Assembly: GCA_027262695.1 (NCBI GenBank)
Contig: GCA_027262695.1_4722.1
Direction: 5' to 3' (one strand)
DNA from: a phage
DNA length: 64,000 nucleotides
In this document: piece by piece, positions 50,614 to 55,836 of the stretch
Layout of the letters: the number at the start of each line of letters is the position of its first letter
Position numbering within the stretch: position 1 is the stretch's first letter
Translations under genes and position numbers: made by a program
Notes under the pieces: model-generated
What the model saw: the letters and a program-made list of their open reading frames with translations, nothing else
The model's database searches: none
Told to the model about the DNA's origin: nothing

Positions 50614-50955
50614 CTATTGTCGTGTCTGTTGCGGAAATACCCGAAACACCTGGACAATGATGTTCTTGTCCTCGCGGTTGGCGATGTCGATCATGTGTTT
50701 TGTTCCAGGACTTTTGAAATCCCAGAACGCAATTAGATGCGTAATGACATCACCCATCCACTCATTGCGTCTGAATCCAGCACCTTTACGATAAGGACCA
50801 TCCCAATCGGCAGGAAACGTGGTGTATTTAAACCCGTAATCCTTCGCGTAGCGGCGCACATGCAAATCAGCACCTGAATGCGCACCGCCAGCAATGAGAT
50901 GAACTTTGTCGTGAGGAAGGTTGTGTAACATCTGGTTCATACGCTTTTCGAACAA
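50614..50955 (-). CDS. DUF2493-like (SLOG / DprA-like fold) protein
   Basis: 113 aa; HLIAGGAHSGADLH...FPADWD...GAGFRRNEWMGDVITHLIAFWDFKSPGTKHMIDIA matches the DUF2493 pattern GGxxGAD...ADW...AGxxRN...AFWDGxSxGT as recalled. Confidence 0.45.
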   Translation of the reverse strand: MFEKRMNQMLHNLPHDKVHLIAGGAHSGADLHVRRYAKDYGFKYTTFPADWDGPYRKGAGFRRNEWMGDVITHLIAFWDFKSPGTKHMIDIANREDKNIIVQVFRVFPQQTRQ

Positions 50956-51008
50956 GGGATAATCATCCCAGTAGCGTGATCCCGATACCCCTACACGATA
51001 GGGTTCGC

Positions 51009-51329
51009 TTATCTTCCACCGCGCAATGACTTTACGTTGCGTGCAATAAACGGTGCAACGTAGTCGCGGAAATTATGGATCCATCCTTTAATGGGTTGGT
51101 TGTCGAGCAAACATTCTCGTACTGAGAATGTGCTGACTTCTAATACGCCAAACTGCAATCGCCAATAACGGTTAATTTCAGCTTGGGTATGTTCTAATGT
51201 CATGTACTCAGGAACACGAGCCAGCAGGTCGTGTTTAAATTGCTCAGCAATCGCTGGTTGATGTGACGCAATTGTCTGCGTGATAACATCAATCAGTTCA
51301 TGCGCGTGCTTGATAGCAGGTGCTGTCAT
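51009..51329 (-). CDS. hypothetical protein
   Basis: ORF track, 106 aa. Confidence 0.55.
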   Translation of the reverse strand: MTAPAIKHAHELIDVITQTIASHQPAIAEQFKHDLLARVPEYMTLEHTQAEINRYWRLQFGVLEVSTFSVRECLLDNQPIKGWIHNFRDYVAPFIARNVKSLRGGR

Positions 51330-51341
51330 TTATTTAGCCTT

Positions 51342-52832
51342 TTATTTTTTACTCGGACGATTCAGCGCAGGCACCGGATTTTTCGGTTGCTTTGTTTTTT
51401 CATCCATCCAGTACGGGAAGTATTCACCTGTACGCATGCGCAGTAAGTCCATGGTGGAAAGGAACGGAAGCGGATTTGGGTCGTCCAGATACGTCCAATA
51501 ACCACGTGTGTTTAACAGTACATCCCAGTCGAAACCTTTTGCTTTAAGATCGTCGTACAGTTCCTGTGGGGTGCAATAGAGCTGTGGGTTCTCGTAAACT
51601 TCTTGACGCCAGAGATTATGCATCTGGCACAACTCCGAGGTAATCTCCAGAGCGCGTTGCAGATACTCATCTTCTTCACAGAGAGAACGAATGGTTGTAC
51701 GCTGTAGTGCAACATCCGGATAAATATCCAAATACACCGTAGAAGCACCCTCAGCAGGTTTACCACCGGATGCATGCATACCCCAACCACGCATCCATTC
51801 TTTATCGCGTAGGTAATGGTATTCTGTTAACGACGGTTTAACGCCTTCGCTCTGACTGACGACAATCGGAAACGGTAAACCTGTCGGTCCGTTTTTAGCA
51901 CGCATGTTGAAAACCTGAATCAACTGCAGATCGGTATCACCAATAAGGTTATCACCAGGTCCACGAGGATACAACACACGTTTATCGGCGTTCTGAAGAA
52001 TCGTCAGTTTATCGATTTTCCAGAGGTTGTTAGTATAAAACGTAAAACGTTCAGGGACGTTCTTAAACTTCTCGTCACCTTTAAACCCTTTCAGTTTTCG
52101 TACCGGTTGCTGGCCTGGCATACCGCCAACGTTGACACCATCACCAAGGTGGGCCGTCATGGTGATATAAATGCCTGCTGACGCGGTGAGTACCGGCATC
52201 TGGGATAAAATCTGGCTTTTTGCTGCTGCTGAACGCATGGCTTCAGCATTTAGCTTTGCACCACCTGCGGTTTCTTTATCGAACAATGCATCAACAGCAT
52301 CGATTGGTAATCCAGAGAAACTGTCAATGAGGACAACGGTTGGTAACCACCAGGTGTAGTTCTCGCCGTGTTTGTTAATAAATGGAACGGCTTTGCGTTG
52401 TGACTTGTCTTTAACTTTGTCGTCACGGAATTTCTTGATTGCGTCGAACCAGATGTTACCACTCATCTGAACAGCGTCGGTGATAAACACACGTTCTTCT
52501 TCGAACAGGTCAACACCCGCGATATTAGACATGTTCATCGCAAGCGTTAAGATACGTGTTGTCGTTAACGACATTTCTGTGTCGTAAACGCTACTATTGC
52601 TGTTCGCGTAACGATCGATAACACGTAACAAGCGAAACATTATGAACGTGGTTTTGTTCATGTTGCCGCGAGCGCCTGCGCCCTCAACAAGCATCATACC
52701 GCCGTTACAAATGCTTTCACCGTGTTTACCGACGTAGTACCGACCACCAGATGTGGGAATATCCATTAAGCAACCAATGTTGAGATTAAAACGCATCTCT
52801 TCACCGGGAGAAAGGTACTTATTAAGATTCAT
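51342..52832 (-). CDS. putative RecA/UvsX-fold recombinase-like protein with a degenerate Walker A
   Basis: 496 aa; LVEGAGARGNMNKTTF (P-loop-like, not canonical GxxxxGKT), VVLIDSFSGL (Walker B-like) and AMRSAAAKSQIL / GIYITMTAHLGDG resemble the RecA core as recalled. Confidence 0.35.
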   Translation of the reverse strand: MNLNKYLSPGEEMRFNLNIGCLMDIPTSGGRYYVGKHGESICNGGMMLVEGAGARGNMNKTTFIMFRLLRVIDRYANSNSSVYDTEMSLTTTRILTLAMNMSNIAGVDLFEEERVFITDAVQMSGNIWFDAIKKFRDDKVKDKSQRKAVPFINKHGENYTWWLPTVVLIDSFSGLPIDAVDALFDKETAGGAKLNAEAMRSAAAKSQILSQMPVLTASAGIYITMTAHLGDGVNVGGMPGQQPVRKLKGFKGDEKFKNVPERFTFYTNNLWKIDKLTILQNADKRVLYPRGPGDNLIGDTDLQLIQVFNMRAKNGPTGLPFPIVVSQSEGVKPSLTEYHYLRDKEWMRGWGMHASGGKPAEGASTVYLDIYPDVALQRTTIRSLCEEDEYLQRALEITSELCQMHNLWRQEVYENPQLYCTPQELYDDLKAKGFDWDVLLNTRGYWTYLDDPNPLPFLSTMDLLRMRTGEYFPYWMDEKTKQPKNPVPALNRPSKK

Positions 52833-54259: not shown

Positions 54260-55786
54260 TTACTCCAACACATAACGTGGGTTACTGTATATGTTAGCCC
54301 ATATCCCCACATCGTTACCTGATTCAATAATCACAGCAAAACGAAACGCAATATCAGACTCACGATAGGTTACTGCATACGCTTTCGTTTCGGGCGATGC
54401 TAAATAGCTCAAGTTCAGACGTTGAGGCAGGTCTAACCCCAAGGACATGGTACATGACGTAACACCTTGTTTATCAGGGTTCAGTCTGTAGTTCATGTCC
54501 ACTTTTAGGCTTTTCGTCACCTGCGTAATCGCACTATGCACTTTGGTAACCGTTTTGCCTTTCTTATCCTTTTCTGTTTCGAAAAGAACGTCGGTAATTT
54601 CGGTTACGACCAGACGCGGTGTGGATTCACGGTTATTGTCCAGCCATTCATCCAGTAACGTCTTCAAGAAGTTCAAGGAATCAATCGCACGCCAAGCAAG
54701 GTTCGGCGGATTACATGCTTCCATGAGAATCGCGGTGTTCGATCCACCCAACGGAAGATGCACGCTCTTACCGAGGCCCGTTGGACGCATGGTAAGATCG
54801 CACTCGCCCTCAAGAATATCGCGATGGTATTGACGATGATGAAGGTTATCGATGTATGCAATATACACTGATTCCGTTGTCCCATGCTCTAATACCCGAG
54901 ATGCATGCATACGCATAATCTCGACAGCATCATCTGGTTTGCTTAGATAGACAACGCTATACGCACTATCGCTGATTCTTTTCCCTAATTCAAGACGTCC
55001 TTTATTATCTTTATCGGTGTTACCACCGAAGTAGATATAGCGACCATCTTTCGCACGTTCTTGCTGCTGGTTGGTGGTGAAGTAACAGCGCGAGAACGTA
55101 AAGAACGGGCTTATTTCCGGCTCGGGGTTCCAATAACCTTTCGCTGGAAGCTCTCGGCGTATTTGGGTTCGTACAGCCCAGTCCTGGTTTTGTGACAGAT
55201 ACGTTCCACGCGTCGCCAGCATATCGGCACGCTCGTTACCGATATTGCCCTCGTGTCCAGGAACGTATCGCAGCGAAATATCGATAGCGTCGCGCTTTGC
55301 ATCCCTGATTGCACTATCGAGTTTTCGCCACCGTTCAGCATTCAACAACGGTTTATTATCGGATTTCACCCAGTTGTTTTCTCGCCAGTTAGCAAGATGG
55401 TTGGTGGTACCTACAACAACATATTGGCTATCCGACAATAGCTGAATCCGTTTTGCCCCCTTCGCTTTTCCAAGTTCAATCGCACGAATCGCTGCGTCCA
55501 ACTCCGCCTGATTGTTCGTCACGTTGAAACCTAACGCTTCTAACTCATCCACGTACTCTTTGGGTTCGACCAGCACAGCGTCTTTAGGAAAGTCGAGTTT
55601 AGGATCGACGTAACCGTATTGCGTCGGTTTGGGCTTTCCACTTTTTGAAGGTTCCAAGGTGCCTTTCACTTCTTTCATCAAATCGTAGGTGTAGCCATGT
55701 ACACCATAGCCACCGTACCCACTTGACGTTGGACGGGATCCCCCGTCACAATAGAAAACGGCACCAAGCTCGTTATTTCCTGCCAT
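54260..55786 (-). CDS. RNase HI-domain protein with a ~320-aa C-terminal extension of unknown function
   Basis: ORF 54260..55798 trimmed to the Met (MAGNNE) with a GAGGT RBS; RNase HI motifs CDGGSR, NNQAELDAAIRA, LLSDSQYVV, VPGHEGNIGNERADMLA in the N-terminal ~190 aa. Confidence 0.65.
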   Translation of the reverse strand: MAGNNELGAVFYCDGGSRPTSSGYGGYGVHGYTYDLMKEVKGTLEPSKSGKPKPTQYGYVDPKLDFPKDAVLVEPKEYVDELEALGFNVTNNQAELDAAIRAIELGKAKGAKRIQLLSDSQYVVVGTTNHLANWRENNWVKSDNKPLLNAERWRKLDSAIRDAKRDAIDISLRYVPGHEGNIGNERADMLATRGTYLSQNQDWAVRTQIRRELPAKGYWNPEPEISPFFTFSRCYFTTNQQQERAKDGRYIYFGGNTDKDNKGRLELGKRISDSAYSVVYLSKPDDAVEIMRMHASRVLEHGTTESVYIAYIDNLHHRQYHRDILEGECDLTMRPTGLGKSVHLPLGGSNTAILMEACNPPNLAWRAIDSLNFLKTLLDEWLDNNRESTPRLVVTEITDVLFETEKDKKGKTVTKVHSAITQVTKSLKVDMNYRLNPDKQGVTSCTMSLGLDLPQRLNLSYLASPETKAYAVTYRESDIAFRFAVIIESGNDVGIWANIYSNPRYVLE

Positions 55787-55836
55787 TGTAAACCTCATTA
55801 ATCATTGTCCGTATGATAGCCCAAAGTTGTACGGTA

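Follow-up and report, generated by a model that had tools for sequence, protein, structure and literature searches.

A SLOG gene without a canonical start codon near the known RecA/UvsX-like recombinase of a Goslar-like jumbo phage

The 64,000-nucleotide (nt) stretch of phage DNA analysed here (contig GCA_027262695.1_4722.1, hereafter the window) carries a block of four genes, all on the minus strand and separated by very short intergenic gaps, which encode a 496-amino-acid (aa) RecA/UvsX-like recombinase, a small conserved protein, a protein of the SLOG superfamily, and a piece of a phage RNA polymerase (Table 1). A reading made from the sequence alone had proposed a RecA-fold protein with a degenerate P-loop, and a DUF2493 protein two genes away from it. 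Both open reading frames (ORFs) are present on the minus strand with a single 106-aa gene between them, so the spacing is correct, and matches are found both to the RecA fold and to the SLOG family. As written, the flagged finding is ordinary and already known. The one new item at this locus is the N-terminus of the SLOG gene, which in Goslar-type phages is start-less yet selected.

Over the 4 kb around the RecA-like and SLOG genes, the window is 93.8% identical in nucleotide sequence to Escherichia phage vB_EcoM_Goslar, a nucleus-forming jumbo phage with a genome of 237 kb. The source of the window is a Goslar-like E. coli nucleus-forming jumbo phage of the Chimalliviridae. In the Goslar record, gp193, gp194 and gp195 are all labelled "hypothetical protein", and the next gene, gp196, is labelled as an "RNA polymerase beta subunit" piece. 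Taken as a whole, we consider it probable that the locus combines a known recombinase bearing a UvsX-type P-loop with a start-less accessory SLOG gene, and that no module linking the two has been demonstrated.

Table 1. Genes and sequence features of the recombinase-SLOG block, in window coordinates
Feature	Coordinates	Strand	Basis or remark
RecA/UvsX-like recombinase, 496 aa	51342..52832	-	Goslar gp193 ortholog
Walker A/P-loop 8-mer ARGNMNKT (A54-T61)	52650..52673	-	between predicted strand 49-54 and helix 60-74
E86 in YDTE, candidate catalytic glutamate	52575..52577	-	invariant in 36 sequences; hhalign to T4 UvsX E92
Walker B strand TVVLIDSF, D170 invariant	52317..52340	-	alignment, model, translation check
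H228 at end of strand 221-231	52149..52151	-	invariant; probably matches UvsX H195/RecA Q194, by motif order
Small conserved protein, 106 aa	51009..51329	-	Goslar gp194 ortholog, PHROG 6181, 3' of RecA-like gene
A_AAG tetramer in upstream-gene frame (GTA AAG)	51030..51033	-	only conserved shift-prone motif giving -1 entry to SLOG frame
GGTGG, Shine-Dalgarno-like	51016..51020	-	3 nt upstream of ATA; kept in all five Goslar-clade sequences
ATAA junction: ATA codon (51012-51010) overlapping TAA stop (51011-51009) of upstream gene	51009..51012	-	relatives have ATG/GTG/TTG there
Full SLOG gene, 132 codons from ATA	50614..51012	-	Pfam gain, tblastn, codon-level conservation
Called SLOG ORF, 113 aa	50614-50955	-	PF10686 (YAcAr/DUF2493)
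Phage multisubunit RNA polymerase beta-subunit piece, 224 aa	49930..50604	-	PHROG 3233 E=1e-64 and Goslar annotation; next gene downstream

Extent of the SLOG gene and selection on its N-terminus

The called 113-aa ORF matches PF10686 with 34.3 bits against a cutoff of 28.2, which bears out the assignment to DUF2493, a family now named YAcAr ("YspA, cpYpsA-related SLOG family"); PHROG 289 matches the protein as well (E=6e-21). The family given in the sequence-only reading is therefore right, but the ORF is not the whole gene, which extends to 51012. Extending the ORF in frame to that position raises the Pfam score by 18 bits, from 34.3 to 52.5, and the covered part of the profile grows from positions 18-64 to positions 2-64 of 66. 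The added segment contains YRVGVSGSR (50974-51000), the first strand (beta1) and glycine-rich loop expected of a DUF2493 domain, both of which are missing from the called ORF. Homologs in other phages found with tblastn align from residues 14-16 of the extension, and a database fragment (P0122) reads through the called start with the frame open upstream, ...RKVIARWKISEPYRVGVSGSRYWDDYP running directly into LFEKRMNQ... The called ORF is the 3' three-quarters of a 132-codon YAcAr-family SLOG gene, in which the motifs GGAxSGAD, RN and SPGTKH are also seen. The predicted secondary structure consists of five alternating beta-alpha units, as in a Rossmann-like domain. The structural model is poor, with a predicted local distance difference test score (pLDDT) of 65, and Foldseek returns generic alpha/beta matches for it, none at E<=0.001. 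A sequence search of the PDB with a query starting at VGVSGSR found nothing.

In the SLOG frame, the stretch from the preceding in-frame stop to the TTG at 50955 contains no ATG, GTG or other TTG, and the Goslar annotation and every gene caller place the start either at this TTG or at a later ATG (Met35, 50910-50908). A canonical start just before beta1 is present in 121 of 128 distinct DUF2493 loci from metagenomes and IMG/VR; six of the seven loci that have none are Goslar-type genomes. The seventh, metagenome contig Ga0210003_1054197, is the sole non-Goslar locus of the 128 whose first strand is not preceded by an ATG, GTG or TTG. Its upstream sequence reads ...GIIIKKVGDFINKIIIAGSR, which could represent another non-canonical start or an artefact.

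We compared the Goslar-clade SLOG genes across three independent lineages comprising five sequences: window/Goslar, the contigs L002 and L004, and the contig L003. Scans of metagenomes and IMG/VR for further members returned only near-identical Goslar-type genomes and distant DUF2493 genes. Across the three lineages, the upstream 24 SLOG codons match the remainder of the protein in conservation, and between the window and L003 the start-less segment has accumulated 11 synonymous-only codon changes and about 5 amino-acid changes. A finer view is provided by nine distinct Goslar-type sequences that are 92-100% identical. Here the substitutions are nearly all synonymous in the frame of the upstream gene until 9 nt before a CGTAAAG anchor, are wholly absent over 37 nt (window 51044-51008), and, beginning with the codon that follows the ATA, are synonymous in the SLOG frame. 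This pattern argues that the start-less segment is under purifying selection and that it is translated. A run of codon identity over YRV was considered as a special signal and rejected, as runs of similar length occur elsewhere.

As annotated, Goslar gp195 and its relatives lack about 27-34 codons at the 5' end, and protein constructs made from the annotated ORF would be without beta1 and would probably misfold. A misplaced start of another kind is found in Ralstonia phage FLC4-3B, where the deposited start of the SLOG gene gp55 (L007:4986-5465) lies 246 nt too far downstream and yields a product of 72 aa; with the GTG that immediately precedes the first strand (MRICVAGSR) as start, the domain is full-length and its YAcAr score is 38.8 bits. 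In Vibrio phage ICP1 (e.g. MW794178.1 80634-80963), the SLOG query matches within a gene annotated as "helB: accessory helicase" (39.5% identity, E=8e-17), so that a YAcAr-like domain belongs to, or overlaps, the helicase gene.

Proposed decoding at the upstream-gene junction

With beta1 and the glycine-rich loop lying upstream of any ATG, GTG or TTG, synthesis of the complete SLOG domain would need unconventional translation. We favor, with some reserve, the view that the Goslar-clade SLOG gene lost all canonical starts for its first strand, has been kept under selection, and is expressed by non-standard decoding at the junction with the upstream gene, either by a -1 frameshift at A_AAG or by termination-coupled initiation at AUA/GUA. 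If true, a model phage would contain an unannotated recoding signal that keeps SLOG at a very low level or couples its abundance to the level of the upstream gene. For experimenters, the junction offers a small and testable example, in an E. coli phage, of frameshifting or of initiation at a non-canonical codon.

In other chimalliviruses, SLOG begins at an ATG or GTG that overlaps the stop of the small gene before it, directly adjoins that stop, or sits slightly further upstream. At the corresponding position, the window and Goslar have ATA (ATAA), L002 and L004 have GTA (GTAA), and L003 has TTG; in each of these sequences, L003 included, GGTGG stands 3 nt upstream of the codon. The annotated ATG and TTG have no Shine-Dalgarno sequence, whereas the ATA is preceded by GGTGGA. 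The most likely route would be initiation or re-initiation at the AUA that overlaps the upstream UAA, with ATAA replacing the usual ATGA coupling junction and the GGUGG just upstream assisting initiation. Initiation at AUA in E. coli reaches about 1-2% of that at AUG, and the 57 other non-canonical codons, GUA included, reach 0.01-1% (bioRxiv 10.1101/063800). The GUA of L002 and L004, with two mismatches to the initiator anticodon, falls in this lower class, which weighs against the AUA model. We infer coupled non-canonical initiation only tentatively, as a possibility that falls a little short of an even call; what is left after this route and the frameshift considered next would go to something else or to truncation.

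A programmed -1 frameshift at the conserved A_AAG (51033-51030), 21 nt before the upstream-gene stop, is somewhat unlikely, though several features are consistent with it. Such an event would produce a fusion of the small protein and SLOG of about 235 aa. Every lineage has SLOG in the -1 frame with respect to the upstream gene, the GTA AAG is identical in 5/5 sequences with an open and conserved -1 frame downstream, and the slip site falls after the conserved part of the small protein. In L002 and L004, no canonical or near-cognate start exists between A_AAG and the annotated ATG downstream of beta1. A_AA.G is moreover the most shift-prone tetramer in E. coli (PMC4066793), and it lies within the 37 nt that are invariant among the nine Goslar-type sequences. 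Synonymous sites also appear suppressed at the end of the upstream gene, where none of the last 11 third-codon positions varies compared with 50 of the 95 upstream (P=5e-4). This value is nominal, however, and a 10-codon invariant run elsewhere in the same gene renders the suppression merely suggestive.

Other findings speak against it. There is no X_XXZ_ZZN heptamer, and A_AA.G shifts at about 0.15%, a background level, when alone and at up to 5.6% with a pseudoknot (PMC4066793). A hairpin 5 nt downstream of A_AAG is no stabler than shuffled sequences (z = -0.19, -1.34 and -0.70), is not the minimum-energy fold in L003, and has stem columns that are all invariant and show no covariation; neither the shuffle test nor covariation reveals a downstream stimulatory RNA structure. 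Among 74 representatives of small-protein homologs, no natural fusion with SLOG was found (one 654-aa match with 7 matched stretches was left aside), and relatives start SLOG independently. In one chimallivirus subgroup of IMG/VR loci (L081, L087, L088, L090, L069 and L076), the last 17-20 codons of the small gene before SLOG are overlapped by the SLOG frame, in the same -1 relation as in Goslar; the sole canonical start (ATG/GTG in A[MV]HDE/AVPDQ) lies within this overlap and gives an N-terminal extension of about 45-50 aa.

A truncated Goslar-clade SLOG, translated only from the annotated Met or not at all as a decaying or neofunctionalised remnant, would agree with all of the gene calls, yet it is very improbable given the evenly conserved and mainly synonymously changing upstream codons in three lineages, their 18-bit contribution to the Pfam match, the lack of a Shine-Dalgarno sequence at the annotated starts, and the fact that a Rossmann-like domain deprived of beta1 would not fold.

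Gene order and the question of a module

We examined synteny in 80 IMG/VR loci that carry the RecA-like gene, counting genes downstream on the same strand. The small PHROG 6181 gene is present in 69/80, the RNA polymerase piece in 73/80, and SLOG in 32/80, and the conserved order is RecA-like, small protein, SLOG, RNA polymerase piece. Where SLOG occurs, it sits between the RecA-like gene and the RNA polymerase piece in 31 of 32 loci. Since it is present in only 32 of the 80, SLOG is an accessory gene in a fixed slot, found in about 40% of relatives, and not an obligate partner of the recombinase. A promoter and terminator scan gave promoters near the shuffled expectation, which is uninformative for a phage with its own RNA polymerase.

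The sequence-only reading had taken the proximity of the two genes as a hint of a recombination or repair module. The conserved gene order stands in its favor, but the low frequency of SLOG, the lack of a DprA match and a fusion to a Macro domain do not. In the fullest form of this idea, SLOG would be a DprA-like loader that binds single-stranded DNA (ssDNA), possibly together with the small protein encoded between the two. DprA does belong to the same SLOG superfamily, and the order on one strand is kept in all but one of the SLOG-bearing loci. The ortholog in phage Moabite gives a sub-threshold Pfam DprA match (E=0.0047; 16.6 bits vs 29.6), and its annotators report an HHpred match to DprA. 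The window SLOG, however, belongs to YAcAr, a different SLOG clade from DprA; at 132 aa it compares with a DprA profile of 212 positions and has no DprA Pfam match at E<=0.1. SLOG is missing from about 60% of the loci with the RecA-like gene. Genes for an RNA polymerase subunit and an RNase H-like protein are part of the block too, and adjacency is therefore no sign of function. Nor is the idea new, as Iyer et al. have proposed that a SLOG-family DprA/Smf could be an additional ssDNA-binding protein beside jumbo-phage RecA (PMC7824862). The module is unproven and, in our view, doubtful.

A different chemistry for SLOG is suggested by one IMG/VR contig (3300003848_000007; L080:6886-8181), in which the SLOG in the same slot forms one protein with an N-terminal Macro domain (PF01661, E=8e-11), the two domains being separated by about 175 residues that have no assignment. 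This fusion suggests ADP-ribose/NAD-linked chemistry for this SLOG group, and jumbo-phage YAcAr proteins, often Macro-fused, have been predicted to act on NAD+/ADP-ribose-type molecules (Iyer et al., PMC7824862). That the fusion is known from a single lineage weighs against the proposal. On these sequence comparisons, the binding or processing of a ligand, either a nucleotide or a molecule of the ADP-ribose type, is a more likely role for the SLOG protein than RecA loading, and its proximity to the recombinase would reflect inherited synteny rather than a demonstrated module. As a dedicated recombinase partner, perhaps a UvsY-like mediator, the 106-aa PHROG 6181 protein, a far more consistent neighbor (69/80) than SLOG, would be the better candidate.

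Further upstream in the window (54260-55798, minus strand) lies a gene for a 512-aa protein, PHROG 3265, in which Pfam recognises an RNase H domain at residues 91-198 only (E=1.5e-24), leaving a large unassigned C-terminal region. This gene is kept 2-3 positions before the RecA-like one in Goslar, Moabite, FLC4-3B and the contig L010.

The RecA-like protein, its P-loop and comparison with known systems

The 496-aa protein is RecA-like, as the earlier reading had it. It is matched by PHROG 97, "UvsX-like recombinase" (E=1.8e-32), and an AlphaFold2 model built on a 36-sequence alignment (pLDDT 87.7, predicted template-modelling (TM) score 0.88) has as its best PDB matches in Foldseek the RecA filaments (E~3e-10, probability 1.0, target TM 0.66-0.77). 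In a fold search, the model scores 20.5 against phage UvsX, 18.9 against the T4 UvsX core and 19-20 against RAD51 paralogs, and DnaB and KaiC rank lower at 16-18. The core has the fold of a RecA-type alpha/beta ATPase. Within the model, the low-pLDDT segments 181-190 and 234-237 fall where the DNA-binding loops L1 and L2 would be expected, a beta-hairpin insert (residues 31-43) precedes the P-loop, and a highly conserved helical region of about 115 residues (~380-496) forms the C-terminus.

Identity reaches 99.4% with Goslar gp193, and with PhiPA3 gp175 it is 37.7% over 96% of the length. A tblastn search places the protein in 288 phage records, each match covering at least 80% of the protein, and the records sampled are 197-322 kb in size; many of the 288 label the gene "putative UvsX" or "RecA-like", PhiPA3 gp175 among them. 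Goslar gp193 localises with the phage nucleus (PMC9891218) and has been named "Goslar's RecA homolog" (bioRxiv 10.1101/2023.09.20.558163), the RecA proteins of PhiKZ and PhiPA3 are cargo imported into the phage nucleus (PMC11087766), and the PCH45 homolog gp72 is nuclear and dispensable (bioRxiv 10.64898/2025.12.19.695335). Puncta or foci have been reported for the tagged proteins (PMC9891218, PMC11087766). The 496-aa protein is the RecA/UvsX-like recombinase that is already known from nucleus-forming jumbo phages, and the flagged finding has little weight, with the "RecA" of these phages already in use as a nuclear-import marker and import carrier. In one relative, the Logan ERR7764192 contig (L004:3029-4102), a LAGLIDADG homing-endonuclease ORF immediately precedes the RecA-like gene in the same frame; the sister contig L002 does not have it. 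An intein suspected from LAGLIDADG Pfam matches in the 862-aa call of that contig was rejected, as the gene caller had merged this separate ORF with the RecA-like gene.

The Walker A claim of the earlier reading holds in part. The sequence GAGARGNMNKTT is present as residues 51-62 and does not match GxxxxGK[ST], but the register is off, and the 8-mer that forms the P-loop is ARGNMNKT. In the AlphaFold2 model, K60 opens helix 60-74 right after strand 49-54, which is the geometry of a P-loop. Alignment of the family profile to T4 UvsX with hhalign (UvsX sequence 100% identical to PDB 3io5) places residues 49-97 onto UvsX 55-103 (E=0.0015) and pairs A54-RGNMN-K60-T61 with G60-PSKSF-K66-S67 (GPSKSFKS). 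The pairings include A54/G60, N59/F65, K60/K66 and T61/S67, and extend to VYDTE/FYDSE (VYDTEMSLT with FYDSEFGIT). The generic motif [AG]x4GK[ST] permits Ala at its first position, so the sole departure of ARGNMNKT is Asn59 for Gly before the Lys, where T4 UvsX, an active ATPase, has Phe.

Residues at the P-loop positions were tallied over the 120 closest cluster representatives of the protein. Position 1 is G in 116 and A in 4; position 4 (Asn57) is N, and position 7 is K, in all 120; position 6 is F in 75, Y in 31, G in 10, N in 3 and H in 1; and position 8 is S in 110 and T in 10. A wholly canonical GRGNMGKS occurs in 10/120. In the 36-sequence alignment E86 (YDTE), D170, S171 and S173 (VVLIDSFS) and H228 are invariant. 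D170 closes strand 165-170 (TVVLIDS) of the model, and a weak hhalign alignment sets this Walker B strand against RecA IVVDSVAAL in the expected register. The P-loop is a UvsX-type variant ([AG]xxxx-x-K[ST]), and the apparent degeneracy is a register error plus this variant. A loss of ATPase activity is not supported by these comparisons; from them we infer ATPase and strand-exchange activity. The protein would hydrolyse ATP in a DNA-dependent manner, bind ssDNA and drive strand invasion, and this activity would serve repair and recombination-dependent replication within the phage nucleus. For a first biochemical test, the residues to mutate are those of the family consensus GRGN[TM][FY]KS as well as E86, D170 and H228.

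Several results weigh against this assignment. The 496-aa protein has no match in Pfam (RecA PF00154/Rad51 PF08423) or NCBIfam, and PDB sequence searches with the single sequence and with the 36-sequence profile returned nothing relevant. The hhalign probability against UvsX is only 17%, and the alignment to E. coli RecA is insignificant. Asn before the P-loop Lys is rare (3/120), the model shows no obvious N-terminal polymerisation helix of the RecA type (ahead of its core, helix is confined to residues 3-5), and no biochemical data on the chimallivirus RecA-like family turned up in the literature examined. The misses among curated models arise because the family is too divergent for them, and its link to RecA/UvsX comes only from PHROGs and fold searches.

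That the ATPase has been lost or strongly altered, leaving a non-catalytic DNA-binding or scaffold protein, would fit the unmatched strict motif, the rare Asn59 and the missing Pfam RecA/Rad51 match, but it is highly improbable because the P-loop Lys and Ser/Thr, the catalytic Glu and the Asp of Walker B do not vary, as they would have done over relatives 44-74% identical to the window protein had activity gone; the register is also that of T4 UvsX, active without the same Gly, and Ala at position 1 is allowed.

Compared with known systems, the protein is closest to the nuclear RecA of the Chimalliviridae (Goslar gp193, PhiPA3 gp175, PCH45 gp72), with which it shares its length class, gene neighborhood and orthologous group. 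At P-loop positions 1 and 6 the Goslar clade carries A and N in place of the G and F/Y of most relatives; otherwise nothing substantial sets the window protein apart. T4 UvsX (PDB 3io5) is about 12-15% identical and 105 residues shorter; it is without the helical C-terminal region, whereas the window protein adds the beta-hairpin before the P-loop and has no predicted long N-terminal helix. UvsY and UvsW are reported only in group 2 jumbo phages (Iyer et al., PMC7824862). E. coli RecA (PDB 3cmu/2rec) is 10-14% identical and differs in its Pfam RecA match, its Gly before the Lys and its N-terminal polymerisation helix. Relative to RecA and UvsX together, the window protein has about 105-145 extra residues.

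For the SLOG gene, the whole PF10686 profile is matched once the N-terminus is restored, as in the YAcAr family, but the canonical start that YAcAr homologs have in 121/128 loci is lacking. DprA/Smf (PF02481), the RecA-loading mediator of natural transformation, shares the SLOG superfamily, and the window SLOG gene also lies near a recombinase gene; its domain of about 130 aa is nevertheless short against the 212-position profile, with no SAM or winged-helix extension detected. Finally, ATGA-type translational coupling and non-AUG starts such as the AUU of infC are known. The junction described here has a geometry identical to that of ATGA coupling, with a start overlapping the upstream stop, and relatives have ATG/GTG there; the overlapping codon is instead ATA in the window and Goslar or GTA in L002 and L004, neither of which is a recognised start codon.

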